Below are positions 588 to 62,490 of a stretch of 64,000 nt of DNA, in pieces. The stretch's first letter is position 1, and each line of letters begins with the position of its first letter. Under the pieces are notes generated by a model. It searched no databases. It saw only the letters and a list, made by a program, of their open reading frames with translations, and was not told the DNA's origin. Both the position numbers and the translations under genes were made by a program. Source of the DNA: Candidatus Pelearchaeum maunauluense (lineage in GTDB: Archaea; Thermoproteota; Nitrososphaeria_A; Caldarchaeales; Caldarchaeaceae); contig JANVYQ010000001.1 in NCBI GenBank assembly GCA_030059675.1, positions 216,753 to 280,752 of the forward strand. Direction: 5' to 3'.

Positions 588-1223
588 TCACCCCTTATAC
601 CATGCTTCAAACTCGCTAGGCTCCATCACGATTAGCCTACCAGTCATGAAAGCATGACCAACGCCACAGAGCTCAAAGCACTGGATTGTATATTCTCCAG
701 TGTCGGCGGGCTTTATCCAAATCCAGATAACCTTACCTGGTATAGCGTCCACACCTATCTTGAACTCTATTAACTGGAATTTGTGGAAGACATCATCACT
801 TGTTACTGCGAAGATTATCACTTCATCGCGCGGCACGCGCACCTCATTAACCGTCTCTAGCCCATTTGGGTAAATGAACTTCCACCCCCACTGGAATCCA
901 TGAACTTTTATGACCATAGCCCCCTTCTCAGGAGGCTTTTCAATTAAATCAACGGTCTCCATCGTTCCCAGTGTTATTGTGAAGAGTATTCCCGTGACTA
1001 TGAGCGTTAGTATTAGTGCAGCGCCTATTGTTCCCCTCTCTGCTGGTATTTTTCCTGGGGTTGGAGCGTCTGCTGGCTCTGGAGAGCCAGGCTTGTGGCG
1101 GTATCGTATTATATTATAGATAAGCAGGGCTATGACGAATGTTCCGACGATTGTTCCGATTGTTAGGTAGAGGTTGAAAAGCTCTTGCCACTGCGCAGTA
1201 ACGGGGGAAAGAGCGGCAGTCAT
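588..1223 (-). CDS. coxB: cytochrome c oxidase subunit II with CuA centre
   Basis: 211 aa with two N-terminal TM helices and the CuA motif CFELCGVGHAFM (H...C.E.CG..H..M), followed directly by coxI. Confidence 0.9.
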   Translation of the reverse strand: MTAALSPVTAQWQELFNLYLTIGTIVGTFVIALLIYNIIRYRHKPGSPEPADAPTPGKIPAERGTIGAALILTLIVTGILFTITLGTMETVDLIEKPPEKGAMVIKVHGFQWGWKFIYPNGLETVNEVRVPRDEVIIFAVTSDDVFHKFQLIEFKIGVDAIPGKVIWIWIKPADTGEYTIQCFELCGVGHAFMTGRLIVMEPSEFEAWYKG

Positions 1224-1452
1224 ATTCCTTCTCAGATAGGGCTGACCTACAGTATTGTGGATTAAGCTTATCCTTCAAATCTGAAGGCTGAATATAAGCT
1301 TCAGCACATACAATATCTTACGGAAGCTACACGCGAATATGGTTTATGATTGAACCATTATGCTTAAATCATGCTGACAAACTAATTAGTGATTCTCAGA
1401 ACTGCTCCTGACCAGGCGTAGAATACTATTCCTTACGGTTATTGTAATAGTT

Positions 1453-2008: not shown

Positions 2009-2565
2009 ATAGTATGCGACGCGTAAGGATTGCGTTGATTGGAGTAGCTATTATTTTTTCTCTATTAGCCATGTTTGTTTTTTCTGCATCTGCCCAGACT
2101 CAGTGGTGCTCAATAAACTGGGTGGGCGACTACATAGTGGAGTTCCGAATTTATCCTAATCCCATAGTTGCGGGCGAAGAATCTCAACTCCTCTTCAGCA
2201 TACTCAATAAAGACCTTGAGGAAGCTAGGAATATAACAGTCTCAATAGCCGTGTTTGAGGGCTATAAGCTTCTCCATAAATTCCCTAAGAGGCTTTACAG
2301 CATGGGAGACCTAAGCTACACCTACACATTCCCCGACACGGGGGAATATATTGTGCTGTTGAACATCTTTGAGGGCAAGGCAATATTAAGCGGCCAATTT
2401 ACCGTTAATGTGGAGAGGCGCGGGATACACTTCTGGCAGATAGCTGCAGCTCTCCCCATGGTGGTTGCCGCCGCGCTCACAGCAGTATATTACGTGCATA
2501 GATTTAGACAAGCACAACACAGCACGCCGAAAGAATTTATAAACAAGACATCAAATAATGAATAA
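2005..2565 (+). CDS. hypothetical secreted/membrane-anchored protein in the cox-SCO1 cluster
   Basis: N-terminal signal/TM helix, a central beta-rich domain and a C-terminal TM helix. Its start overlaps the SCO1 stop (ATGA-type overlap). No motif recognised. Confidence 0.45.
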   Translation: MNSMRRVRIALIGVAIIFSLLAMFVFSASAQTQWCSINWVGDYIVEFRIYPNPIVAGEESQLLFSILNKDLEEARNITVSIAVFEGYKLLHKFPKRLYSMGDLSYTYTFPDTGEYIVLLNIFEGKAILSGQFTVNVERRGIHFWQIAAALPMVVAAALTAVYYVHRFRQAQHSTPKEFINKTSNNE

Positions 2566-6323: not shown

Positions 6324-6539
6324 CTAACGCGACGCAGAGACTCTACTAGCCATTTTACGTATCTCATCGCGAAGCTGCTTAGCAACATCTAGGATATCGC
6401 GGAAATAGGTTGGCTCAAGCTTTTCAGCCCCATCCCTGATAAGGAGTTGCTCTTCCTCTATTTTCTTCTCCTGAGCATCCAGCTCTATTCCACCCTCTTT
6501 GCGCTGTTCCCCGCTTTTAGTAGCGGTTTTAGCGTTCAT
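6324..6539 (-). CDS. hypothetical small coiled-coil protein
   Basis: 71 aa, charged and coiled-coil-like. It overlaps the next ORF by 11 nt in another frame. It could be the second half of a frameshifted TM plus coiled-coil protein. Confidence 0.25.
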   Translation of the reverse strand: MNAKTATKSGEQRKEGGIELDAQEKKIEEEQLLIRDGAEKLEPTYFRDILDVAKQLRDEIRKMASRVSASR

Positions 6540-6744
6540 TAGGTTCTGCTTTTATCTCGTCTAACGTTTTCTCAAGCTGTTCTAGTTTTTGTTCAAATGG
6601 TGAGAGCATTAGCGTTGGTGGGCGGGATTCTCTCTGCATCATGTTTTCTCTTCTTGTTATGGTGGTTTGTTGCTGGCTTCTCTGATGCGTAGAAGCGGGT
6701 CTGTTTGATGCTATTATTATAACGGCTATGAGCAGGGCTATCAC
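6529..6744 (-). CDS. hypothetical small protein with an N-terminal TM helix and coiled-coil
   Basis: MIALLIAVIIIASN... followed by a ...QKLEQLEKTLDEIK coiled-coil. It lies downstream of the flaJ halves. Confidence 0.25.
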   Translation of the reverse strand: MIALLIAVIIIASNRPASTHQRSQQQTTITRRENMMQRESRPPTLMLSPFEQKLEQLEKTLDEIKAEPNER

Positions 6745-6822
6745 CGCTGCGGTGGCCAGAATCCATGCTAGGGTGTCATTAGCCTGTGGTGGTATTATTG
6801 CGGTTTTCGCCCCCTACGTGGG

Positions 6823-7446
6823 TCATGTGCTCACCAGGCTTGAGAGCTGCCGCCCTATTGAGGCGAATGCATCAAGCACAAAGCCGCTGAGGGCTGCTAC
6901 GCCGAGATACGTTATGCCGCTGACCATCAGCAAGACCTCCGCGTGGAACGTGAAGGTGAATATGGCGTCTCCGTCTGAGAGGTAGATGTTTAGTGCGCTT
7001 ATGACCGCTACGGCCACCGCTATCCAGTAGAAGTATAGGGTTGTTAATGTTGGTGGGATTGGTGTTATGAGTTGAAGGAACTGCGAGACTAGGGAGGATA
7101 TTTCGTTGAATATGCCCATGAGCGAGTTCATTAGGCCGAATATTGCTACCAGCGTCATCTGGAGGGGTATTACCATCCCCTTGAGAACCCCGCTCACTTG
7201 CTTACGCTTCTTATCACGAAGTAGCTGCGTTGTGAGGTACTCGTTCACGACCTCAGCAGCGGTTGTTGGCTTACCGCCTGCGCGTAGCGTCTCGCCATAG
7301 GCGGCCATGCATTTATAGGCGATGTCGCTGAGCGTCTCCACACCGAAGAGCCTCAGCGCATGCGCCTGAGGTATGCCAATCCTTATACGCGCATATAGGT
7401 TTCTAATCAGCGCGTTAAGCGGGCCATAGTCGCTGAGCATCATCAT
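6823..7446 (-). CDS. flaJ: archaellum/type IV pilus membrane protein FlaJ/TadC-like, C-terminal T2SSF-domain half
   Basis: 207 aa polytopic membrane protein with a T2SSF-like helix pattern. Its reading frame stays open 30 codons upstream of MMM and overlaps the end of the preceding T2SSF ORF, which suggests a single flaJ split by a frameshift. Confidence 0.55.
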   Translation of the reverse strand: MMMLSDYGPLNALIRNLYARIRIGIPQAHALRLFGVETLSDIAYKCMAAYGETLRAGGKPTTAAEVVNEYLTTQLLRDKKRKQVSGVLKGMVIPLQMTLVAIFGLMNSLMGIFNEISSLVSQFLQLITPIPPTLTTLYFYWIAVAVAVISALNIYLSDGDAIFTFTFHAEVLLMVSGITYLGVAALSGFVLDAFASIGRQLSSLVST

Positions 7447-7490
7447 CTTGGCCGCGCCAGCGGCCGAGCCTGTGACAGCTATGTAGTCGC

Positions 7491-8402
7491 CTAGGCTCTT
7501 GAAAACATCGGCATATACGCTTCTCTCTCCATAACCAGCCTAACCCATCGCCTGCCAGCTATTCCATGCATCAATAGGGGGGCTGAGGCTATGAGCATGG
7601 AGAGCGGGCCAGGTATCAACGACCTCATCAACAACCCAGCGTCGCTGGGGGCTGGTAGCGTTAGTGGGAGTATGATAAGCACGGCCATGGAAGAGACTAT
7701 GATGATGCGGGAGAGCTGCTCAAGTCTATGTAGTTTCTCAGGCCTATGTGGCTCTTTGTGCATGAGCCTTCTGCGTATGTTGTTCCTTAGAAAGAGAAGC
7801 GTCATGCTGGCTAACGTTGCTATGACTGCCAGGATGGAGATGTTCAGGACGGTAGAAGAGTATTGTGAGCCGTAGATTATCGCCATGAGTAGGAACGCTA
7901 CCGAGAGGAAGCCCATGGAGCTTAGGAGAGCTGAATACGACTCGGCAAGCCTCTTAAGCTTCTCAACCATCTTCTCAAACTCGGCCTCAGGAGACGCCAG
8001 AAACTTCTGGAACTCTATCAGCGTAAAATCGCCAAGACCTACGCCAGCCTGCGCGGCGTGGCTAAGCCTATTGAGAAGCTCGCGGTGGTTTTGGTCTATA
8101 TTATCCGAGGCAGCAGCCCTAAGAGCGGCTGTCTGCAAGTACCCCCACTTCTCAACCATCACCTGTATTTTGGCGAATAGATACGAGACTGGTGTTAGGA
8201 GCTTTTCGCGGCCTAGAATCCGTAGAGCGGTTTTGAGCGGTATCCCTGAAGCTCCTAGGCTTGTTAGGTAGAGTAGTGTTATTGGGTAGAGTTCTGACAG
8301 CCTTCTGTTTAGGGAGAATCGCTTGAGGAGCCTTGTTTTGTGGTTTGTTCTCTTATTTCTGTCTGAGCCATACGCTCTCTCCCCGCTCAACGCGCTCGGC
8401 AA
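7491..8402 (-). CDS. flaJ: archaellum/type IV pilus membrane protein FlaJ/TadC-like, N-terminal T2SSF-domain half
   Basis: 303 aa with cytoplasmic helical domain plus TM pairs typical of the GspF/FlaJ family. It lies directly downstream of the flaI remnants. Together with 6823-7446 it totals about 510 aa, the usual FlaJ size. Confidence 0.6.
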   Translation of the reverse strand: MPSALSGERAYGSDRNKRTNHKTRLLKRFSLNRRLSELYPITLLYLTSLGASGIPLKTALRILGREKLLTPVSYLFAKIQVMVEKWGYLQTAALRAAASDNIDQNHRELLNRLSHAAQAGVGLGDFTLIEFQKFLASPEAEFEKMVEKLKRLAESYSALLSSMGFLSVAFLLMAIIYGSQYSSTVLNISILAVIATLASMTLLFLRNNIRRRLMHKEPHRPEKLHRLEQLSRIIIVSSMAVLIILPLTLPAPSDAGLLMRSLIPGPLSMLIASAPLLMHGIAGRRWVRLVMEREAYMPMFSRA

Positions 8403-10065
8403 CCTTTGCCACGCCCTCGTCGTAGCAGAGCTTCACAACGTTCCAAACCTGCTCGTAGTCGGTTATCCCCAGCTCCACTAGGCGCTGGAGAATCCACGCC
8501 CTCCTCTCCAGCTCGTCATAAACCCGCCGCGCATCGCGGCGCGAGAAACCCATAAGAGTAAGTATCTTGGTCTCAAGAAGAAAGCTGTTTCCCTCACCCC
8601 TAAAACATGCACACCATCAACAGCATCCCAGCTGAAGAGCTCTATGAAGTCAAAACTATCCATGCTTGGGTCGTAGCCCGCCATCTCATTTACGCTCAGT
8701 ATGCGGCGCTCAACCTTCCCTGTCCGCGGTATCCTTACCGCGCTCTGGATTACTACGCAGTTGAGTATATCTATGTAGGTCTTGGGTATGTTTATCGGGT
8801 CTCCCGTGAGGCGTTGTATAACCTTCTCCACAGAGCCTGCGTGGAACGTTGCCAGCACTGGATGCCCTGTCTGCATGGCTTGGAATGCCACCGTGGCCTC
8901 GGCTCCGCGTATCTCGCCGACTATGATGAAGTTCGGCCTCTGCCTAAGCGCCGCCTTGAGCAGGTCAAAGAGCTCCACACTGGGTCCTCCCTGCTCGCCC
9001 TGCCTAGTAACCTCCCTAACCCAGTTGCCGTGGGGGACGATTATCTCAGGCGTGTCCTCTATGCTTATTATCTTGGCCTTTGGGTTGATGAAGACGCAGG
9101 CCGCTCTCAGGGCTGTTGTCTTCCCAGAGGCGGTCTCCCACAGAACCATACACTAAAGCCATACTCAAGCAGTAGCCAGAGGTAGGCAGCCTCAAGGGCG
9201 CTGAGCGTGCCCCACTGTATCAGGCTGGTTATGCTCACAGGCTTCTCGGAGAACTTTCTTATCGTGAAGTTTGAGCCACACCTGCTAATATCGCTGCCGA
9301 ACACTATGTTTATGCGCAAGCCGTCTGGGAGGGGGCGTCGACTATGGGCCGTCTATACGTTACAGGCCTCCCAGCCCTCTCCGAGAGCCTTAAGACAAAG
9401 CCATCAAGCTCCTCCGCGCCATTAAACCTAACGTTAGTCTCACAGCTTCCGAAGATTTTATGCTCAACAAACACGGGCCCGACGCCGTCGCATGGTATAT
9501 CCTCTATGTATTGGTCGCGGATGAACGGCTCAAGCGGGCCTAGATAGACCTTCTCCATGACCATCTCAAAGCGGAGCGCGTCAAACGTTTCCTGATTCAC
9601 GTATATTGCGAGCAGCTTACCCTTACGTCTCGCTTCATTATATTCCCAGAGCTCTAGGCTGTCGTCAACTACTAGAATTTGGTCCAGCAGCTCCATGAGG
9701 AGCTGTTCATGCTCCTCTTTTGTCGCGAATGTTTTGGTAGCGTCTATGAGCGCCGCCATTCCTTCTTCAACCAGCATAAGCAGGTCCCGCGCCTCTGGAG
9801 GAGCTTGCGGCGTTACCGCGTTGTAATACGCGCGCTCACCCTCGCGCGAGTAGACGTGTATGAAGATTGGGACTCCCACTGGGTAGATTATGCTGAAGCT
9901 CTTCTGGTATCGTAGGTCTCTGGAGAGCTGTTCGCGGTACTCTATTGGCCTGCCTGTCCTGCGGCTCCATTCTATGATATACCTCTGTAGATGCGGGAAA
10001 CGCGCGGCTATTCTTCTTATTTCTGCGCCGCCAGCGAGTTTTTGCTGGGAGACCTGAACCGACAT
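8353..10065 (-). pseudogene. flaI: archaellum ATPase FlaI (VirB11/PilB-family secretion ATPase), broken into four frame segments
   Basis: Segments 9310-10065, 9107-9319, 8478-9149 and 8353-8553 read as follows. N-domain ...YIEDIPCDGVGPVFVEHKIFGSCETNVRFNGAEELDGFVLRLSERAGRPVTYRRPIVDA. Then INIVFGSDISRCGSNFTIRKF...LWLLLEY. Then Walker A WETASGKTTAL ...IEDTPEI...RPNFIIVGEIRGAEA...FQAMQTGH. Then C-terminal DARRVYDELERRAWILQRLVELGITDYEQVW. The junctions fall at a C5 run (about 9322), at about 9149/9107, and at a T-run (about 8553). Confidence 0.8.
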
Positions 10066-10819: not shown

Positions 10820-11306
10820 TCAAATCATCGAGCCATGCCTCAACCTCTATCGTTTCACGCACATTCCAGATACCAGAATAACCATCAACAAGGTCTATGT
10901 GGTCTAGTAGCTCGCCAGCAAAACCGTTGGTATATACAGCTATTATACGCCATCCCTCTGGTTTCGCCCTACCTGGGTCGTAAGACAGCCATACACTACG
11001 TAAAGCGCCATCAGTCTTTCTTACGTATGTGATTATTACATCAACGTATCTAAAGTTGGCCGCCCTATGCGCGTATGGCCCTTCGTTCTCCACGTAGAAT
11101 TGGATAAGATGGGGCTGGACGACCGTTATGTTTAGTATTTTGTAGTGGTTTTGTCTTAATGCTATTTCTGCTGATTCTATCGTTGATTTCTGTAATTCTA
11201 CCAGCAGGCTACCTGCTGCCGTGAATAGTAATAGGGCTGGGATAAGTGTCATGGCCGCAAGCCACGCAGCAGCTATCGTGGCGAAGCCCGACATGTCGGA
11301 ACACAC
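10761..11306 (-). CDS. flaF: archaellum protein FlaF-like
   Basis: 181 aa with one N-terminal TM helix followed by a beta-rich soluble domain. Gene order G-F-H-I-J. Confidence 0.5.
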   Translation of the reverse strand: MCSDMSGFATIAAAWLAAMTLIPALLLFTAAGSLLVELQKSTIESAEIALRQNHYKILNITVVQPHLIQFYVENEGPYAHRAANFRYVDVIITYVRKTDGALRSVWLSYDPGRAKPEGWRIIAVYTNGFAGELLDHIDLVDGYSGIWNVRETIEVEAWLDDLIDGQYPVLVRFVGAEWVGG

Positions 11307-12481
11307 TATACTGAGAAGTAGTAATCAGACTTCTGGCCCAGATAGGCCACGAACCTAACGAAGTACTCGCCAGCGCTCAACGTGAAGTTAAGCGTAATCG
11401 TTATGAGTAGTGTCTCGCCTGGGTCCCATCTTCCGTCGTTATCAACGTCGTTCATGGCTGTGTATGTCCAGCCCAGTGATGTTCCTTGGTATGGTATACT
11501 TACCAACATGCTTCGGTTCCCTAGGAAGATGTCGGATAGCTTAACCAGCTCTGGGTGTATGTCTGCGCTTCCCGTATTCTTTACCCATGCTCTTACCTCG
11601 CTGCTCCCAGAGGTTGATGTGGCGAATATTATCTCCGTATCTATTGAGAGCTCCTTTTTGAGCCGTTCTATTTTTTCGCGGTGCGCTTGGCCGAGGTCTC
11701 CCAGTGTGGTGAATACCGATGCAGAGAACGCCGACGCAGCCACTATAGCGGCTATCAGGATTATTGCCTCAGCTATCACGTAGCCCGTCGGCATACCCTT
11801 AGAACCCCCAGACTTTCCGTGAATATTGGACTGGCCTGAGAGGCCATGAAGCCTGTCAAACGCCGTGAGGAGAAGCAATAGTAGTGGGCCGTCTTCCTCA
11901 TGCGCTACTTTTGATAGTAGATAGAGAACAACCAACACATTACCCAGACCATAGTTCTTAGGAGCCAGCGACTCGTATTGAAGGCCAAAATCACTTCTGG
12001 CAGAGAGTTCCAGCGCTTCTTTAACGTCATCGGCTATATCCTTAGGCAACAATCCTTTCCAGGCCATCATATTTACTATGTTTAAGACCTGCTCGCGGCC
12101 AACGAGACCTATCATAAGATACGTGGCAGCCATTATGTTTAGGAACCTACCGAGACTTCTCCCCTCTGTTCTACGCGGTATTATTGATAACTGTTCATAA
12201 TGCTGTTTTAAGGGCTCTATCTGCTGATGAGGCTCTTCTTTATGCTGTTCCATGTCGGACTTTTTACTCTGCTGGGTTTTTAGCTCAGGGATGTTTGAGC
12301 CTAGAAGCGCGCTAACATAGGTGAATGGGTTTTCAAGTGTTCCGAGAATTTCACGCACATCTAGGAGTGTCTTCTCTAATGGCTCCTTGAGGCTCTTCAC
12401 CTCTTCCTCAAGTTGCCGCAGTTTCTTTTCTAAAGGGTCGCGGGATGGAATCTCTTCGCCTGCCAATACCTCCACCTCCAA
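11306..12481 (-). CDS. FlaX/FlaCDE-like coiled-coil domain fused to a FlaG-like domain
   Basis: 391 aa. N-terminal coiled-coil KKLRQLEEEVKSLKEPLEKTLLDVREILGTLEN. A FlaD/E-like segment ATYLMIGLVGREQVLNIVNMMAWKGLLPKDIADDVKEAL. C-terminal archaellin-like hydrophobic helix GMPTGYVIAEAIILIAAIVAASAFSASVF plus a beta domain, as in FlaG. Confidence 0.5.
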   Translation of the reverse strand: MEVEVLAGEEIPSRDPLEKKLRQLEEEVKSLKEPLEKTLLDVREILGTLENPFTYVSALLGSNIPELKTQQSKKSDMEQHKEEPHQQIEPLKQHYEQLSIIPRRTEGRSLGRFLNIMAATYLMIGLVGREQVLNIVNMMAWKGLLPKDIADDVKEALELSARSDFGLQYESLAPKNYGLGNVLVVLYLLSKVAHEEDGPLLLLLLTAFDRLHGLSGQSNIHGKSGGSKGMPTGYVIAEAIILIAAIVAASAFSASVFTTLGDLGQAHREKIERLKKELSIDTEIIFATSTSGSSEVRAWVKNTGSADIHPELVKLSDIFLGNRSMLVSIPYQGTSLGWTYTAMNDVDNDGRWDPGETLLITITLNFTLSAGEYFVRFVAYLGQKSDYYFSV

Positions 12482-13024: not shown

Positions 13025-13133
13025 ATCTTATTAAAATAAGATTTGAGATGTATAAAAATTCATAAACAAACTTATTTAGAATACTACTGAAATAATGATA
13101 AAAATACAACAGGATAATTGGAAAAGCAAAAAG

Positions 13134-13902
13134 ATGGAGACGGGGATTAACTGGGCTTGAGACAGCGATTATACTGATAGCCTTCGTCATCGTCGCCAGC
13201 GCCTTCGCCGTAGTCAGCAGTTTCAAGATAGATAGACTTCAGATGGAGGGGTTTTCCCCAGGCCTAAGGCTCTTCCAAGAGCTTATGGGGGCTTGGGGTG
13301 GGTTCACCCTGACAGGGGATGAGGCTGACGAGGGCTCCGATGAACTCATGAGGAGCCCGAGGCTGATGAATCCCAAGACTTACGTATGTCTATGAAAGAC
13401 TACGTAGGTCAGAACCCGTCCTAAATCTGGACATGTTCACGACGCAGAAGAGCTCAGAAGCCATGCAGGCTGGCTTGCAGGGGTCGCTCAGCTCTATAGA
13501 GATTGCGGGCGCGGTCATAGCCCAGGCCGACACAACTGTAACGCCAGCTAAGGTGAAGAATATCACCATACACATCAAGACGGCTGTCGGGAAGGCAGCC
13601 CCATAGACATGTCAAAGGATAAGCTCGTAATAGCCTACCGAGACCCCAACACGTTCCTAGAGAACATCTACACAGATACGTACATTCTTAACAATAACAT
13701 AACCGTAGCAGAAGTAACAGGCGATGGCGACTCTGTGCTGGAGTATGGTGAGGTCTGGAAAATCGTCATAGCCATACCAGAGCTGGCCAACCTAAACCCC
13801 AACGACATATTCGCGGTGGAGATAAAGCCACCTGTAGGCTCGCTACTGAAGGTTGAGCGAAGGCTACCACCCGCCTTCGACGCTGTTATGGACCTGACCT
13901 AA
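13134..13902 (+). pseudogene. flaB: archaellin (FlaB) with class III signal peptide, disrupted by an internal insertion of about 196 nt and by frameshifts
   Basis: Frame 1 (13102-13395) reads KRWRRGLTGLETAIILIAFVIVASAFAVVSS, which matches archaellin N-termini. Frame 2 (13418-13606) reads VLNLDMFTTQKSSEAMQAGLQGSLSSIEIAG...NITIHIKTAVGKAAP. Frame 1 again (13609-13902) gives the C-terminal domain ...VTGDGDSVLEYGEVWKIVIAIP... The ATG at 13134 is out of frame by one base. The mid/C junction is at a C4 run (13599-13602). Confidence 0.75.
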
Positions 13903-14952: not shown

Positions 14953-15934
14953 ATGCAGGGTATGGAGACTAGGGAGCACGCGTTAATAGGGCTTGTGATA
15001 ATCTCGATAATAATAGCTACTGGCTCTATCTTATTCTCATTCATGAAGGGCATAAACATCTTTGACGCGTTCTACTGGACGATAACTGTATTGACAACGA
15101 TTGGCTTTGGGAATATTGTACCAACGACTCCACAGGCTAAGATTCTGTATATAGCGCTGGTAGTGTCGGGTATAGCGTTTTATGGCTATTTCGTAACCAG
15201 CATAAGCGAGTCAAAGCCGAAAACATCTTAGCAGCGTATTTGCCTGGGATATACATGTCGCGTAGGTTGCAGAACCATACGATAATAATTGGCTGGAATA
15301 GGTTCTCTGAGGCTGCCTATGAATAGCTGGAGATAAACGGCAGAAATCCAGTCGTTGTTGTTGAGGATGAAGAGAGGGCGCGTATGCTCTCTAGGAGCGG
15401 TGTTAGGGTTATGTATGGCGACCCCGCAGATGAGAATATTCTAAAAGAAGCGGGGATAGGTGGATGTAGTTCTCTATAATCATAACTGATGTAAATACTG
15501 AGAAGAAGCTTATCTATATGCTCAAGACACGAAAGCTACGCGGGGGTGTTCCTATCATAGTTCTGAGCAGGAAGCGGGGGATGCGCGACATCTATAAACA
15601 AGCGGGAGCAACGCGCATAGTTGACGCATACGATATTGTTGGAAGGCTTCTGGCGGGAAGTGTCTTTGAGCCGCTAGCGAGTGAGGTTTTATATGATATG
15701 GCTGAATCCTCCAAGGATCTAGACATAACCGAGGCGGGGGTAGGAGTAGAAGCAACGATAGAAGAGCTGGAGCAGCAAGGATTCAAAGCACACATAATAC
15801 TCGTAGAACGGAACAATGAGAGAATATACACGCCACCATATAATTTCAGGCTAAAACCTGGCGATAAGGTTGTTTTGGTTGGAAATGCCAGCGATATAGC
15901 TAGGGACTTGAGAATGCTCGGCGGTGGGTCATAG
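14953..15934 (+). pseudogene. MthK-like K+ channel (pore + RCK/TrkA-N + TrkA-C), with two frameshifts and an in-frame TAG
   Basis: Pore ORF 14953-15231 carries the selectivity filter TVLTTIGFGN. The RCK continues in shifted frames: HTIIIGWNRFSEAAYE-TAG(15324-15326)-LEINGRNPVVVVEDEERARMLSRSGVRVMYGDPADENILKEAGIGG, then 15479-15934 ...IYMLKTRKLRGGVPIIVLS... plus a TrkA-C domain. The junctions are at an A4 run (15220-15223) and near 15471-15478. Confidence 0.75.
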
Positions 15935-29922: not shown

Positions 29923-30174
29923 TTGGGGTGCTACGTGATGGTGAAGAATGATCAACAGGAATATTCATGCGACCCTGAAACTGCTCTTGATTTGCTAATA
30001 GCTGAGCGTGGTAGGGTGTTGGAGGAGTATGGCGGCTTTATAATAGAGGTGATAGACCAGCGTGGCTTTCCCTGGCCTGATGTCATACGGATACTCCTGA
30101 GGATTAACCATGAGGTTTGGATTGAGGAGCGTGAGGGGAAGCTCTACATAATCTCTAAGCCGAAGGCAGATTAG
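29923..30174 (+). CDS. hypothetical small protein
   Basis: 83 aa ORF with a plausible context. No motif recognised. Confidence 0.3.
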   Translation: MGCYVMVKNDQQEYSCDPETALDLLIAERGRVLEEYGGFIIEVIDQRGFPWPDVIRILLRINHEVWIEEREGKLYIISKPKAD

Positions 30175-31568
30175 CCAGCCATTAGGGGGACCTGTAGATA
30201 TAGTAGGATGAGGGCTACCGAGAATGTTGGTATTGCTACAATAGAGCCGACTTTAACCCATTCCAGTAGTGATATATGCCCCATACGCTGTCTCTCTATA
30301 AGCCCTACAGCAACGATGCCAGCCGTGCTCCCTATGTACGTGAGCGTTCCTGTGAATGTCCCCCCGAAGAGGAGAACCCACCATAGGGGATGGATGTTCA
30401 TCCCAGCGTCACCCATCCCCTCAACTATGGGGATCCAGAGCGTTACTGCGAGGACGTTATCCATGAAGGCTGACATGAATCCCATAGTCCAGCCTGTGAA
30501 GAGGAAGGTTGTCAGGAAGTCTCCCCCGCCTATCGCTACTAATGTGTTGGAGAATACATCGGTTACTCCCGTGAATTGGAGAGCGCCGACAGACGCGAAG
30601 AGGAGTAGGAAGAAGCTTAGGGTCCACCAATCCACGCGGCGCTCAAGTAGTTCGCGCGCCTTTCCACGCTCCATCAACAGAGCTATGCCAGCCGCTATTA
30701 CGGCGACACCTATGAGCATGGTGTTCTTCTCAAGCCCCAGTATAGCTTCTATCTGGGTGTGAAATATAAGCCCGGCCAGAGTTCCTAGGAAGAGGAGCGT
30801 GGGGCCAAGCCCAAGCTTTGATCTCTGCGCCGAGCCGCTCTCAACACCCGCGATAGCTACCTGCGCTTTCATCTTGGCGTCCATCTCAGCAAGGTAGCGG
30901 CGGAAATAGAGCTGGGTGATTGCCATGCACATCAAAAGACCAATTATTGATATTGGGGTTGCCCAGCGGAGAAAGTCAAAGAAGCTGAGCTTGGCCTTAA
31001 GCGCTATGATTACTCCTATCGGATTGCCCACTACTGTGGCGCTACTTCCTATTATCGTGGCGAATACACTCATCATAATTAGGGGTATTATTGATATGCC
31101 CAGTCTAGTAGCTAGGTGTATTGCGGCTGAGCTTATGAAGAGGATTGAAGTAACCTCATCCACCAACGCCGCCGAGAGTGCTGCCATAGCCATGAGCAGC
31201 ACGACAGTCTTTCTAGCACTACCGCCAGCTAGACGCAGTATCTTGTCCAGTATAGCTTCAAAGAAACGCCGCTCCTCAAGAAAACCAACCACCGTCATCA
31301 TGCTTATTAGGAATATGATTATGTCAAGCCCCGCGGATTTTATGAACTGCTCAATATCCATAACCCCTGCCGCAAAGAGCGCTCCAAGCCCTAGCAATGT
31401 GAAGACTACCCTAAATCTCCAGTAGAGTAGCGCTCCTAGTATGATCGCTGTGAATATGGTGATGGAGAAGATTTGCTCCCGCGCGAAGCCTGCTACAAAT
31501 GACGCTGTAGCCGTGAATGCCAGAATAGCTACGTATGCAACTGCGCGCGGAGCTTGAGCCATTCCCAA
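30171..31568 (-). CDS. ArsB/NhaD-superfamily permease (tandem paralog 1)
   Basis: 465 aa with 10-12 TM helices and two internally repeated halves, as in ArsB/NhaD/CitMHS-type transporters. It shares long identical nucleotide patches with the neighbouring paralog. Confidence 0.6.
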   Translation of the reverse strand: MGMAQAPRAVAYVAILAFTATASFVAGFAREQIFSITIFTAIILGALLYWRFRVVFTLLGLGALFAAGVMDIEQFIKSAGLDIIIFLISMMTVVGFLEERRFFEAILDKILRLAGGSARKTVVLLMAMAALSAALVDEVTSILFISSAAIHLATRLGISIIPLIMMSVFATIIGSSATVVGNPIGVIIALKAKLSFFDFLRWATPISIIGLLMCMAITQLYFRRYLAEMDAKMKAQVAIAGVESGSAQRSKLGLGPTLLFLGTLAGLIFHTQIEAILGLEKNTMLIGVAVIAAGIALLMERGKARELLERRVDWWTLSFFLLLFASVGALQFTGVTDVFSNTLVAIGGGDFLTTFLFTGWTMGFMSAFMDNVLAVTLWIPIVEGMGDAGMNIHPLWWVLLFGGTFTGTLTYIGSTAGIVAVGLIERQRMGHISLLEWVKVGSIVAIPTFSVALILLYLQVPLMAG

Positions 31569-31677
31569 TACACCTCATATATTCCATAGCCATCAGGAGG
31601 AACGCTTCCCCTCCAAAGGAGGAGGAAGAGAGGACGTAGTACTCCGCTATTCCACTAGGATATGAGTCTTACTACGC

Positions 31678-33072
31678 TTAGGGCATGAGCGGTATCTGGA
31701 TGTAGAGTAGGATTAGCGAGAGTAGGAAGGTCGTGAAGGAGACCAAAGCGCCGACGACAATCCAGTCGCGCATGGTTACGTGGGCTACTCTCTCGCGCTC
31801 CACCATGCCTACAGCCACGATGTTGGCCGTGCTGCCTATTATCGTGAGATTCCCCATCAGCGTTCTAGCGAAGAGCATAGCCCACCATAACGGGAAGACA
31901 TTGAAGCCAAACTCTCCAATTGACTTGACTATCGGAATCCATAGAGCCACAGCGAGCACGTTATCCATGAACGCCGTCATGAATCCAACAGTCCATCCGA
32001 CAAGCATGTAAGTGCTGAAGAACTCTCCCCCGCTGAGGCTGAAGATTGACTCTGACATTAGCTGCGCTACTCCCGTGAATTCCAGTGTCCCTACGGTGGC
32101 GAAGAAGAGGAAGAAGAAGCTTAGGGTCCACCAATCCACGCGGCGCTCAGTAAATTCGCGCGCCCTATCCTTGAGTAGGAAGAGCACTATCCCAGCGAAT
32201 ATTACTGGAACGCCTACGAGCATAGTGTCCCGCTCCAGTCCTAGAGCATCTTCCAACGGGCTGTGCATCACAAGCCCAGCAACCATACCGCCAAAGATTA
32301 GGAGGGAGAGCCAGTCAATCTTGTTTGGATTCTCGCTGGAGGCCGTCTTTTTCACAATCTTCTCAGCATGATACTGTTTAAGCCTCTCATCCATCTCGCG
32401 GATATAGCCGCGGTAGTATAGTAGGCAGAGTAATATCGTAAGCGCTAGCGTCGCGGCTGATATTGGTGCTGCCCAACGTATGAAGTCTAGGAACGTTAGG
32501 CCTGCTCTCAGCGCTATTAAGACTCCTATCGGGTTGCCGATTACTGTGGCGTTGCTCCCTACGTTGGTTGCGAAGACGGACATAATGAGGAGCGGGACTA
32601 CAGGAAGCCTAAGCCTCCCCGTTAAGTGTATAACTGTTGCCATGACGAATAATATGGACGTTACCTCGCCCACCAAGGCTGACGCGACAGCCGCCATGAC
32701 CATGAGTAAGGCGATAAGCTTCCTCGCGTTTGCGCCAGCAACAACTATAAGCTTCTCCAAGAGGGCTTCAAAGAAACGCCGCTCCTCCAGGAAGCCTATG
32801 ACCATCATCATGGCTATCAGGAAGAGTATTATGTCAAAGCCCGCGGATTCTATGAAGTGTTCTATGTCAAGTAGGCCTGCTCCGAATAGTATTCCTATCC
32901 CCACCAAAGCGAATGCTACGCGGAATCTCCAGTAGAGTAGGGCGCCCATTATTATTGCCACGAATGCTGTTAGTGCGATTGACTGACGCGGGATTACTCC
33001 AAGACCTGTTGAAACTAGGCCGACCAGCGCTACGACAGCCATGTATGCTGCTACCTTCCTGACATCAGCCAA
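31678..33072 (-). CDS. ArsB/NhaD-superfamily permease (tandem paralog 2)
   Basis: 464 aa, colinear with the 30171-31568 product. Examples of shared patches are ...KKKLRVHQSTRRS... and FKETPLLQEAYDHHHGYQEEYYV-like segments. Confidence 0.6.
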   Translation of the reverse strand: MADVRKVAAYMAVVALVGLVSTGLGVIPRQSIALTAFVAIIMGALLYWRFRVAFALVGIGILFGAGLLDIEHFIESAGFDIILFLIAMMMVIGFLEERRFFEALLEKLIVVAGANARKLIALLMVMAAVASALVGEVTSILFVMATVIHLTGRLRLPVVPLLIMSVFATNVGSNATVIGNPIGVLIALRAGLTFLDFIRWAAPISAATLALTILLCLLYYRGYIREMDERLKQYHAEKIVKKTASSENPNKIDWLSLLIFGGMVAGLVMHSPLEDALGLERDTMLVGVPVIFAGIVLFLLKDRAREFTERRVDWWTLSFFFLFFATVGTLEFTGVAQLMSESIFSLSGGEFFSTYMLVGWTVGFMTAFMDNVLAVALWIPIVKSIGEFGFNVFPLWWAMLFARTLMGNLTIIGSTANIVAVGMVERERVAHVTMRDWIVVGALVSFTTFLLSLILLYIQIPLMP

Positions 33073-33148
33073 GGCGTATGTACACCACTAGTTTTTGGAT
33101 ACCTGCAAATCGCGTTTATACGATAAGATAAGTTTACCTAATAGCATG

Positions 33149-56447: not shown

Positions 56448-57236
56448 CTAAGCTAAAAGAGAAGGAGGCTGAGTAATGTCCTCAGTAGCCCTAACAACCC
56501 AAACACTCTCACGCCTAGCCCTCTCCACAAGCTCAGGCATAGCCAGAGAGCAGTAAACCAGCAACAGGCGCCTAGGTCTGAGATAAGCTGGATACCTCTC
56601 CTCTAGTATGTGGAGCTTGGAATAGAGCTCGTCAAGGACGCCTACGCCAGCCCTTACAGAGGTCTCACCCACAACACAGAGGTCGTCGGAAACCCCGTAA
56701 ATATCCACCTCAAGGTCAGGAAGCTGAAGCCGCCCCAGCTCAACATTAACACCCATCTCACGAAGCCTATGCCTCACAACAGACCTACCCTCATCCTCAA
56801 TATCAAGAGTAAGCTTCTCAAGAGTTCTCTCAACCCTACCAAGCCTAACATCCATACGGCTAAAATCAAGCCGCAACAGCCTCATCTCCTCCAAAATCTT
56901 AATTTGCTCACCACGCAAACTTCTCATCTCCTCCAAAATCTTAATTTGCTCACCACGCAAACTTCTCATCTCCTCCCATACCTTAGCCTGCTCTTCGCGA
57001 AGTCTCTCAATCTCCTTCCATATTTTGGTCTGCTCTTCTCTGAATTTCCTTATCTCCTCCCATGTTTTTTCAATTTCCTTCCATATTCTTCCCTGTTCTT
57101 TGCGTAGCTCTTTCTGCTCTTCTGCTATGCTGTCAAGTCTCTTTAGAACATCGGCTATCCCTAGGTAGCCTAGGACTGTGTATCTGAATTCTTCGTCTTC
57201 CTTGAGTAGTTTTAGGAATTCTCCGCGTATCCCCAA
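56448..57236 (-). CDS. DUF3782-like protein: long coiled-coil with 14-aa repeats plus C-terminal PD-(D/E)XK-like domain (paralog of 36928-37622)
   Basis: N-terminal ...IWKEIEKTWEEIRKFREEQTKIWKEIERLREEQAKVWEEMRSLRGEQIKILEEMRSLRGEQIKILEEM.... C-terminal LEVDIYGVSDDLCVVGETS (D..E.S in place of E.K). Confidence 0.5.
   Translation of the reverse strand: MGIRGEFLKLLKEDEEFRYTVLGYLGIADVLKRLDSIAEEQKELRKEQGRIWKEIEKTWEEIRKFREEQTKIWKEIERLREEQAKVWEEMRSLRGEQIKILEEMRSLRGEQIKILEEMRLLRLDFSRMDVRLGRVERTLEKLTLDIEDEGRSVVRHRLREMGVNVELGRLQLPDLEVDIYGVSDDLCVVGETSVRAGVGVLDELYSKLHILEERYPAYLRPRRLLLVYCSLAMPELVERARRESVWVVRATEDITQPPSLLA
56881..56976. repeat. 42-nt perfect tandem direct repeat (two full copies plus a partial third) inside the DUF3782-like gene
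   Basis: The unit CTCATCTCCTCCAAAATCTTAATTTGCTCACCACGCAAACTT starts at 56881 and 56923 with a partial third copy from 56965. It encodes a duplicated EQIKILEEMRSLRG. Confidence 0.85.
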
Positions 57237-60984: not shown

Positions 60985-61329
60985 GTAGAGCTTCACGGCA
61001 AGCTCGGCGAATCTTGGGTCGTTAATGTCGGTGCCCAACTCCTCTATGGCTACGTTTCTGCCTAGCTGTTGTTTTAGGCGTTCTACGAAGAGCTTATTGC
61101 TCCCAGGCTCGTATAGCTCTCCGCCCTCTACGTCTAGGACTGACCAGCCCCTCGTGGGTATTACGAATGCTATCCCCCTTTTGAATTGGTTTAGCTTCTG
61201 GGCTAGCGTGTCGCATACCTGCATGAGCTCCTCGCGGATTAGCCTGACGTTGAGGTTGTATGGGTTGTGGGTGGATTTTACATCCCTCCCTGAAGCGTTG
61301 GGGTATGCTCTCAAGGGGGCCGAAGACAA
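60967..61329 (-). CDS. hypothetical protein, possible gene fragment
   Basis: 120 aa ORF. It overlaps the 3' part of the aldolase remnant in another frame. No motif recognised. Confidence 0.2.
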   Translation of the reverse strand: MSSAPLRAYPNASGRDVKSTHNPYNLNVRLIREELMQVCDTLAQKLNQFKRGIAFVIPTRGWSVLDVEGGELYEPGSNKLFVERLKQQLGRNVAIEELGTDINDPRFAELAVKLYLELSG

Positions 61330-61728
61330 GGTAGTTGATGCTCCCTGGAGCAGCGACTAGCGGCGGTACGCGCTCAGCAAGCGCGAACGCAGTAGAGTAG
61401 GACGGATGACCATGAATAACAGCGTTCAACTCAGGCCTAGCCTTGTAAATCCCTAGGTGGAAGCGATACTCCTTAGAGGGCTGCCCCTCCCCCAAAGCTT
61501 ACGCCCCTCAAGGTCTATAACGCTCATCATGACGAGCATCCTATCGCTGTGGTAGTTACCCCCCTCTTGGGCAGCCCCACTCCTAGGCCTCCTCCCCAAC
61601 CTCCTTATCAAATCCCTATACCTCTTGCCTTTGAGGCCTGCCGTTATGAAGTCTCCGTCCGCCTCGATCACGCCTGACAGCCTAGCCACGTCCGTCTGAC
61701 TAGATAGGATGGGTAGAATCTTATACAC
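61094..61728 (-). pseudogene. class II aldolase/adducin-family protein (FucA/MtnB-like), frameshifted
   Basis: 61453-61728 encodes ...SGVIEADGDFITAGLKGKRYRDL...VIDLEGRKLW. Then a -1 slip at a G5 run near 61478. Then 61094-61495 encodes GEGQPSKEYRFHLGIYKARPELNAVIHGHPSYSTAFA, which are the PSsE...H..iY...AVvH.H motifs. Confidence 0.55.
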
Positions 61729-61989
61729 GGTGCCACATCCTATCTTGAGGGGTAGGCCGTGATGGAGGTGTTCACGAAGAGAAGGACGAACTCTACTAGG
61801 CTTAGCCTAGAGTAGTGCAGCAATGTTCCAGTCTTGTCGTTAAAGCTCCCACCACATCCCCTGCAGAGATACCTACCCCACCTCTTAAACAACCCCTTAT
61901 CCAGACACTATTGTTAAAGTTTAAAAATAACTTAATCGAATAGTATGAATGGATAAGACAAGCCGCAGGGCCCTCGAATGGGGGCTCTG

Positions 61990-62490
61990 CTATAATCGTG
62001 TCTCTTCTATTATGTCGTATATATAGGTTACTTTATCTGCTAGTAGTTTCAAGTCTCTTCCTAGAGCGTCTTTAAACGAGGCTATCTCCACTCGTTTTCC
62101 TTGGTCTTTTACAGTCTTCACGGCTTCTATGTAATCCGAGTCCCCACTAACCAGTATAGCCGTATCGTATGCATTCCTAAATGCAAGCGTTATCAGTTTA
62201 GTTACTAACGCAACATCGACGCCCTTTTCTATTCTTATCGATTGTCCTTGAAACTGTCTCTCCCTTAGAGGCCTTGCGAACACCTCTATCCCGTTGAGGC
62301 TTAGGTTATCGTAGAACTTCTGAGGCTTCTTATCAGGATGGTATGAGCCGAAGAATTAACTCCTAACAAGATACCTATCCCCGCAGAGTGATTTAACAAG
62401 CTTAAGATAGTCAATCCTTAGTTGTTTCTTGTTTCTAGCACTCCACCGATTAGCCGAGTGCAAAACATTAGAACCATCTATGAAAATCAT
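61990..62490 (-). pseudogene. NYN (LabA-like PIN) domain protein with in-frame TAA stop at codon 45
   Basis: ATG at complement 62488-62490 gives MIFIDGSNVLHSANRW...YLVRS-TAA(62356-62358)-FFGSYHPDKKP.... This continues in frame into ORF 61990-62283, ending ...DTAILVSGDSDYIEAVKTVKDQGKRVEIASF. The gene is visibly AT-rich. Confidence 0.6.

Follow-up and report, generated by a model that had tools for sequence, protein, structure and literature searches.

An insertion in a decaying aigarchaeal archaellin gene is very probably the relic of an internally deleted IS607-family element

Introduction

In a 64,000-nt stretch of the metagenome-assembled genome (MAG) of Candidatus Pelearchaeum maunauluense (assembly GCA_030059675.1, contig JANVYQ010000001.1, positions 216,753 to 280,752 of the forward strand; this whole stretch is called the window, and coordinates without a locus label refer to it), a FlaB-type archaellin gene is interrupted by roughly 200 nt of DNA whose removal would rejoin the frame of the two segments around it. 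Is this DNA an intron, an insertion element, or something else? An earlier reading of the sequence alone had listed as candidates a small insertion element resembling a miniature inverted-repeat transposable element (MITE), a splicing-type intron in a protein gene (rare in Crenarchaeota, with cbf5 as the known precedent), and a decay insertion; the organism is an aigarchaeon and not a crenarchaeote (Caldarchaeales-like MAG, ORF NXY59_01385). Our answer is that the inserted DNA is very probably a 206-nt relic of an internally deleted IS607-family element, which has kept its guide-RNA module and lies within a decaying archaellin gene and motility cluster.

The IS607 family, with IS607 of Helicobacter pylori and IS1535 of Mycobacterium tuberculosis among its examples, combines the serine-recombinase TnpA, which has a MerR-type HTH at its N terminus, with the RNA-guided nuclease TnpB (RuvC and Zn ribbon). 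IS607 elements have no terminal inverted repeats (TIRs) and no target-site duplications (TSDs); an identical dinucleotide (GG) is found at the termini and in the target, and short motifs are repeated at the ends (PMC6188088). In an IS607-type IStron, TnpA works via a circular intermediate with the core dinucleotide at both junctions, the TnpA target motif is at the same time the transposon/target-adjacent motif (TAM) of TnpB, the omega-RNA scaffold finishes in bases that match the end of the TAM, and 40 bp of left end together with 60 bp of right end are enough for excision to occur (bioRxiv 10.1101/2023.11.20.567912). The omega-RNA scaffold has its 3' end at the right end of the element, and the flank beyond the right end is the guide (PMC10278001).

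Results

The insertion is absent from related archaellin genes

The class III signal peptide and helix of the archaellin (...RRGLTGLETAIILIAFVIVASAFA) is read in frame 1, and archaellin homology resumes at 13418 with VLNLDMFTTQKS... in frame 2. The DNA between the helix and 13418 has no archaellin similarity, as the sequence-only reading had maintained, and no Pfam match, and the N-terminal reading frame of the archaellin is open through the insert. That reading had also held the two segments to be contiguous in other archaellins, and so they are: they adjoin (...ASAFAFAVLNLG...) in 12 of 12 aligned close ortholog proteins, and the close relatives among 79 related loci, which were drawn from species-representative genomes other than the source genome, give matches of 534-579 nt that are all unbroken by an insert. 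Aligned at the DNA level with three syntenic loci, the insert faces a single gap of 202 columns in the orthologs, and no relative's archaellin has an insert at this position. Judged by these comparisons, the insertion is real and specific to this lineage, because the helix and the downstream segment are contiguous in orthologs and related loci alike.

The insert matches the two ends and the tnpB tail of an IS607-family element

A phmmer search with the 59-aa translation of the insert against 1.84 billion representative proteins gave 52 matches at E<=1e-3, which comprise the source's own open reading frame (ORF) P0121 (100%), many ORFs of 40-130 aa at 50-76% identity, and TnpB-like C-termini. 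The C-terminal ~50 residues of P0136 (433 aa), P0127 (253 aa) and P0147 (194 aa) match the insert peptide; the C-terminal consensus of the larger proteins reads ...CSRCG...CGLRIDRQLNAxxNLYLQMEGLSPSPKLFEELMKxWSGFTLTGEEADEGSxELxRSPRLMNPKSY..KTT. P0136 and P0127 match PF07282 (E 5e-13 and 5e-11) as well as NF040570 guided_TnpB (E 8e-20 and 1e-23). A profile search with the tails returned 262 proteins, mostly ORFs of 50-128 aa, some of them named 'transposase' or 'RNA-guided endonuclease TnpB family protein, partial', with Korarchaeota, Bathyarchaeia, Methanodesulfokora and Thermoproteota as hosts.

The family to which these proteins belong includes an autonomous element, locus L163, where a 198-aa MerR/HTH_17 + Resolvase gene (1190-1786) lies upstream of, and overlaps, the 433-aa tnpB gene that encodes P0136. 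Because a tnpA of the MerR-HTH + Resolvase type overlaps tnpB, we regard this as IS607 architecture. Aligned with the 3' end of tnpB and the right end in L163, and with the short elements (minis) L164, L174, L175 and L176, window DNA at 13238-13417 shows 72-84% identity, and tblastn of residues 377-424 of the L163 TnpB against the window gives E=3e-14. The tnpB remnant contains two stops, an internal TGA at 13393-13395 (relatives read S, Q or P before the KTT-stop) and the family stop TAG at 13404-13406. In the chimeric ORF P0161 and in the mini L176, N-terminal codons of TnpA are joined to a TnpB tail.

The left end of the insert can be aligned not only with that of L176 but also with those of L164, L175, L174 and the autonomous L163 (Table 1), and a search of the window for its pattern gives one occurrence, where 0.01 would be expected. 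Position ~30 of this left end is joined to the tnpB tail at a CTT microhomology, 13237-13239. Element sizes in the family are 1969 (L163), 417, 305, 273 and, in the window, 206 nt. The right-end sequence GTAGGTCAG repeats the left-end terminus GTAGTCAG, so that GTAG(G)TCAG stands at both termini, and the position of the right-end repeat is kept in the family alignments; by analogy, the terminal repeats and palindromes are plausibly candidate TnpA binding sites. The FKIDR at the 5' end of the insert, considered as a TnpB RuvC-III motif, is a coincidence according to the left-end comparisons.

Two observations concern the minis themselves. One mini copy recurs in ten samples at an identical intergenic position (Sec61-beta / Auto_anti-p27), and many minis in other archaea (L164-L173, L174, L175, L176; proteins P0174, P0240 and others) keep an intact 54-aa ORF (MEGLSPS...KTT).

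Both boundaries carry the CC core dinucleotide

The right boundary proposed earlier, 13417|13418, proved exact: all six family members end ...CAGAACCC (...CTACGTAnnTCAGAACCC) at this point and then diverge. The left boundary had been set at 13222, which the family left ends shift to 13210; the inserted DNA is 13210-13417, 208 nt rather than 196, and is made up of the 206-nt element and one copy of the junction CC, and the length of 1 mod 3 that had been noted holds for the corrected value. The window shares CC|GTAG[TAC][CT]A[GA]CAGTT... at the left end with L176, L175 and L164, and because this pattern is common to these three loci, the residues VVSS are element sequence and not archaellin. 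CC stands at both junctions in the window, L176, L175, L164 and L163, with flanks that are otherwise unrelated. Under a model of exchange at CC, the empty site would be GCC TTC GCC|GTC CTA (ASAFA|VLNL), in frame, that is, GCCTTCGCC|GTCCTAAAT. We rejected a classical TSD model, with GTAG(G)TCAG as the duplication: under it the empty site would be too long by 7 nt, and the end motifs account for the repeat.

The left flanks of these five independent insertions are alike (Table 1), which suggests, as far as the flanking sequences go, a target or TAM motif ending (G/A)CC in this IS607/TnpB lineage.

The right part of the insert is predicted to form a conserved RNA structure

The insert has a minimum-free-energy z-score of -4.0 on the plus strand, against -2.25 on the minus strand. 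The RNAalifold consensus of six family copies contains 55 pairs, 54 of which are retained in the window copy. In this consensus 96.8% of the cells are paired, against 33-51% with the partners slid, and compensatory double changes are found in 15 of the 55 pairs, against 1-7 in the slid controls, the observed values being reached by none of 500 shuffles; to be set against these figures is that the structure was built from the same six sequences used for the covariation, which biases the percentage paired upward and the compensatory changes less. Variability at the three codon positions of five copies (0.20 / 0.15 / 0.23) shows a weak periodicity that does not separate peptide from RNA constraint, and in the autonomous copies the tnpB tail is probably under both. 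By its predicted structure, its overlap with the tnpB 3' end and its end at the right-end boundary, the module fits a TnpB omega-RNA scaffold.

When the window was searched with Rfam, at the gathering score and at E<=10, two tRNAs were found, and in the insert there were only chance-level matches to C/D-box and microRNA families (bits 10-15, against cut-offs of 38-80). A C/D-box small RNA, a hammerhead, an H/ACA RNA and a group II domain V, each considered by eye, were set aside on misfits of spacing or core bases, and Rfam is silent on them.

As an observation apart, the 11-mer GAGGCTGAYGA, with one mismatch allowed, occurs 11 times across the window where 2.4 occurrences are expected. Two exact copies (13321-13331 and 13359-13369) border the central hairpin of the element; the remaining ones are probably a codon-usage effect (Glu-Ala-Asp).

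The archaellin gene carries two further frameshifts

After repair, the archaellin translation matches PF01917 (E=1.6e-25) and is 75-77% identical to archaellins P0001-P0003 (197 aa, from Caldarchaeales/Aigarchaeota-type MAGs). In the DNA alignment, ATG 13095 lines up with the start region of the orthologs. From this ATG to GAG 13161 there are 67 nt (1 mod 3), and ATG 13134 is likewise in frame 0; the leader in frame 0 ends at TGA 13158, whereas RRGLTGLE reads in frame 1. Downstream of the insert, tblastn places a switch from frame 2 to frame 1 between 13594 and 13597. The archaellin ORF is broken at three places though its domain remains recognisable, no single ORF unites signal peptide, helix and beta-rich domain, and the gene is a pseudogene. 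Removal of the insert, which was expected to restore one continuous archaellin, restores the frame between the two flanking segments but not a complete ORF, owing to the two additional frameshifts that the sequence-only reading had missed.

The archaellum cluster is in the course of being lost

Around the archaellin gene, flaJ, flaI, flaH, a gene without a Pfam match and a FlaG/F-like gene on the minus strand, and the archaellin, an MscS channel and a K+ channel on the plus strand, are syntenic with relatives. Since the archaellin, flaI and flaJ all carry lesions (Table 1), we conclude that the archaellum cluster is being lost and that the organism is losing its archaellum. The MscS gene directly upstream of the broken K+ channel, FlaH and V-ATPase subunit I are intact, long ORFs cover the window outside roughly 6-16 kb (93% coverage), and the stop in the K+ channel gene is a substitution rather than an indel; because the rest of the window is intact and this stop is a substitution, the breaks are not general assembly noise. 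The 'decay insertion' among the earlier candidates is borne out as a description of the context, given the two extra archaellin frameshifts and the broken flaI, flaJ and K+ channel genes.

Within the same cluster, the 391-aa ORF at 11306-12481 (minus strand) is a fusion, in one frame, of two genes that are separate in relatives, where the counterparts are a 232-aa protein and a 158-aa FlaG/F-like archaellin-domain protein. The homology of the short ORFs at 6324-6813, beyond the flaJ pieces, is not clear.

Elsewhere in the window, four consecutive short ORFs at 61094-62355 (minus strand) with partial Aldolase_II and NYN-domain matches may be further pseudogenes outside the motility cluster. A minus-strand ORF contains 42-nt tandem repeats (three copies, 56872-56997) followed by related 31-nt units to 57100, the whole array spanning 56872-57100, and at 30171-33087 (minus strand) there are two adjacent paralogous genes (~468 aa) that share a 97-nt stretch with 84% identity (30564-30660 / 32068-32164). 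Exact-protein look-ups of four window ORFs found none on record, probably through differing called start codons.

Table 1. Coordinates and basis of the features in the window, with the left flanks and left ends of related elements (positions of the latter within their own loci)
Feature	Position	Strand	Basis or remarks
flaJ, split in two ORFs (303 and 207 aa)	6823..8402	-	T2SSF match in each piece; tblastn of ortholog N-terminal part; ORF map
flaI (archaellum ATPase) pseudogene	8362..10023	-	tblastn of L080 FlaI (569 aa): frames -2, -1, -3, -2; 5-aa deletion
Archaellin (FlaB-type) pseudogene	13095..13902	+	frames 0 -> 1 -> 2 -> 1; PF01917, tblastn (three frame segments)
Probable +1 frameshift site (A5 run), signal-peptide leader	13128..13132	+	exact base inferred
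Window left flank CCTTCGCC	13202-13209	+	left flank of the insertion
Left CC core (crossover) dinucleotide, last bases of target motif CCTTCGCC	13208..13209	+	CC precedes left end in window, L176, L175, L164, L163
Left end remnant GTAGTCAGCAGTTTCAAGATAGATAGACTT	13210..13239	+	28/30 bases identical to L176 left end
tnpB remnant, last ~56 codons (LQMEGFSPGLRLFQELM...NPKTYVCL*KTT*)	13237..13406	+	phmmer, tblastn, protein alignment
Structured RNA module (omega-RNA/right-end element RNA-type scaffold)	13238..13417	+	ends at right-end boundary
Right-end subterminal repeats: ~13-bp palindromes GACTTACGTATGTC, GACTACGTAGGTC (TACGTA-centred)	13377..13410	+	20-21 bp apart
Right CC core dinucleotide, last bases of right end and RNA scaffold	13416..13417	+	six copies end CAGAACCC
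Putative guide flank GTCCTAAATCTGGACATGTT	13418..13437	+	position only; native archaellin codons VLNLDMF
Net +2 frameshift in archaellin	about 13596..13604	+	GGCAGCCCC vs CAGCCG in orthologs (DNA alignment)
TrkA-type K+ channel gene, broken	15022-15919	+	three segments, two frameshifts, one in-frame stop AAYE*LEING
L176 left flank CCTTTGCC	2435-2442		left end GTAGACAGCAGTTTCAAGATAGATAGATTT
L175 left flank CCTCCGCC	1398-1405		left end GTAGTTAACAGTTCCAAAATAGATTT
L164 left flank TAATCACC	1393-1400		left end GTAGCCAACAGTTTTAAAATAAATAGACTT
L163 left flank TCACCGCC	1113-1120		left end (upstream of tnpA) TTAATCAACTGTTTCAAATTAGATGATCTT
L174			left end (degenerate version) TATATCAGCAGTTTCAGGACAGGTAGATTT

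Discussion

A scenario for the origin of the insert

We propose the following scenario, of which the recombination mechanism, the order of events and the expression of the RNA are what we infer. An IS607-family element would have integrated, in sense orientation, at the CC in CCTTCGCC, among the codons of the archaellin N-terminal helix, and serine-recombinase exchange over this 2-bp core would leave CC at both junctions without target duplication. An internal deletion via the CTT microhomology would then have joined left-end position ~30 to the last ~56 tnpB codons. The deletion might have happened before the move or in place afterwards; we consider the latter slightly more likely because the deletions of the minis all differ, ~30 bp of left end remain, and a near-identical ORF is not on record. 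What remained would be the 30-nt left end and the tnpB tail with the right end, the segment encoding the omega-RNA scaffold. The insertion would have shifted the archaellin frame and added foreign codons and a stop, with two more frameshifts arising in the gene, before or after the insertion, while flaI and flaJ decayed. That only ~30 bp of left end survive, with neither tnpA nor tnpB in the 64 kb, suggests that the relic is immobile at present.

Several observations weigh against this scenario, besides the circularity of the RNA structure mentioned above. Repeat searches, blastn with word size 7, nhmmer, pattern scans and tblastn found no tnpA, no tnpB and no second copy of the element in the window, and no ORF with 90% identity or more to the insert peptide is on record, so that there is no sign of recent mobility. 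The core dinucleotide is CC in the element's orientation, whereas characterised IS607 and IStrons have GG, and the NF040570 scores of P0136 and P0127 fall under the curated cut-off of NCBIfam. Lastly, the empty site of the CC model lacks one GCCTTC unit (Ala-Phe, 2 aa) that all orthologs have, within a helix that is very conserved, and this calls for either an extra 6-nt slippage loss in the (GCCTTC)2 repeat or a left edge 6 nt further inward, at 13216. The reading that keeps the ortholog length would make the insert 13216-13417, 202 nt, and the left edge is thus uncertain by 6 nt; on the sequence comparisons we favour 13210, because CC then flanks both sides in every well-preserved copy.

Like IS607, the family has the overlapping tnpA and tnpB genes of L163, and the window element has neither TIR nor TSD, the same dinucleotide at both junctions and short repeats near the ends; unlike IS607, the window copy has lost tnpA and nearly all of tnpB, the core is CC and not GG, the hosts belong to the thermophilic archaea, and a target motif of greater length (..YGCC) is suggested by the left flank. 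As in the TnpB omega-RNAs of IS200/IS605 and IS607, a predicted structured RNA of ~180 nt on the tnpB strand overlaps the tnpB 3' end and stops exactly at the right-end boundary, its last bases being the last bases of the target motif; in contrast to those RNAs, the module in the window matches no Rfam family and has no tnpB gene nearby.

Could the element still move, or act in trans?

The alternative that survives best is that the insert arrived as a 206-nt, active non-autonomous element, a MITE-like mini-IS607 that could be moved again by a TnpA produced from another place in the genome. It retains its two ends and the CC core, its RNA module has an intact structure, short derivatives form a large family spread across many archaea, and mini-IStrons that have neither gene are mobilised in trans, in a system in which the left end required is about 40 bp, against the ~30 bp left here (bioRxiv 10.1101/2023.11.20.567912). 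The internal deletion differs in each mini examined, so that these look like independent decay products, and a near-identical copy is neither on record nor in the window, the nearest relatives of the window copy differing by 16-18%. We consider an active mini-element unlikely.

The copy search put forward in the sequence-only reading as a test for a MITE gave no further copies in the window, nor is there a second copy in the related loci. Exact-pattern scans of viral contigs gave 0, 1 (by chance) and 0 matches; those of metagenome contigs gave 75 matches, none extending past the pattern; and blastn of the insert against phage and plasmid collections gave no match. A classical MITE has terminal inverted repeats within a target-site duplication and many near-identical copies per genome. 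The window element resembles MITEs and palindrome-associated transposable elements in being short and non-coding, in keeping both ends of the parent insertion sequence and in belonging to a family with many short derivatives. It differs from them in having no TIR (the sole inverted match is 7 bp, 13209-13215 / 13398-13404, and on the right side it falls short of the terminus), no TSD apart from the CC core, none of the end hairpins of the IS200/IS605 type that are recognised by Y1 enzymes, a single copy in 64 kb, and deletion end points that vary among its mini relatives. The suggestion of a small MITE-like insertion element was thus right as to a non-autonomous derivative, here of IS607, and wrong if a classical MITE with TIR, TSD and a second copy in the window is meant.

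A more far-reaching idea, which we hold to be improbable, is that the relic may still function as a guide-RNA gene: transcription reading through from the promoter of the archaellin would yield an omega-RNA, and TnpB from a full-length copy elsewhere in the genome would cut intact alleles. If so, the guide GTCCTAAATCTGGACA... would match the uninterrupted archaellin allele beside the motif ..TTCGCC, and cutting of intact alleles would favour the disrupted archaellin, a selfish element thereby driving the loss of motility at the level of the population. More generally, the stand-alone minis, which number in the hundreds in thermophilic archaea, would then form a reservoir of trans-acting guides.

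Artefact, intron or self-splicing element?

That the source is a MAG, and that several indels are clustered within 10 kb, might point to an assembly artefact, a chimeric join or collapsed repeat with sequencing errors as the frameshifts. The junctions match the biology of the family exactly, with CC on both sides and complete left and right termini; together with the long intact ORFs outside 6-16 kb, the substitution behind the K+ channel stop, and the intact MscS and FlaH among the broken genes, they make such an artefact very improbable.

Scarcely any credence can be given to a bulge-helix-bulge (BHB) intron that the splicing endonuclease would excise from the mRNA of the archaellin, on the model of the crenarchaeal cbf5 gene. 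A BHB consists of two 3-nt bulges with a 4-bp helix between them, cleavage being between the second and third bulge bases (PMC2738675), and Aigarchaeota own a broad-specificity (alpha-beta)2 endonuclease (PMC5829648). The likeness to cbf5, whose BHB intron is cut by EndA, is that an insert sits in an archaeal protein gene and that taking it out (208, 202 or 196 nt) rejoins the frame of the flanking segments. At the true junctions, however, only 1-2 of the 4 central-helix positions pair, and folding of the junctions, another check proposed at the outset, yielded nothing above chance among 6400 junction pairs or among the 230 frame-restoring ones. The single hBH-like arrangement among the latter, at 13215|13405, is no more than chance would give (0.23 expected); it has no inner helix, and splicing there would produce AVVRSEPVLNL, with Arg, Glu and Pro in the conserved hydrophobic helix. 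Unlike the cbf5 intron, the insert has no BHB at its junctions and no conservation in orthologs, being absent from the 12 aligned ones and from the 79 related loci, and it is homologous to a transposon, in an archaellin with two more frameshifts next to dead flaI and flaJ genes. The splicing-type intron among the earlier candidates is not upheld.

Equally remote is the idea that the insert is an IStron-type element, a group I intron joined to an IS607 element, that splices itself out of the host mRNA. IStrons such as CboIStron and CdISt1 share its transposon superfamily and, like this highly structured element, lie within genes in the sense orientation; being IS607 or IS605 relatives that splice from the genes they interrupt, they are a real precedent for a spliceable insert (bioRxiv 10.1101/2023.11.20.567912). 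But the left end, the site of the intron in IStrons, is just 30 nt here, Rfam finds no group I core and, with the threshold relaxed to E<=10, still no match to a group I or group II intron, and the structured part is the right-end RNA scaffold and not an intron core.

Significance

With the insert read as an IS607-family relic, an apparent archaeal protein-gene intron is resolved as a transposon scar, which spares the very short list of archaeal mRNA introns a false entry. IS607/TnpB derivatives are already known as a kind, and in this respect the window element adds modest value. What it helps to document is an archaeal IS607/TnpB lineage with defined ends, a CC core and a target motif of the ..YGCC type, many members of which are minis that keep a covarying guide-RNA scaffold. 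This should be of use in annotating ORF fragments now called 'hypothetical protein' and in mining thermophilic TnpB/omega-RNA pairs. For the organism, the locus shows an aigarchaeal lineage in the course of losing its archaellum.

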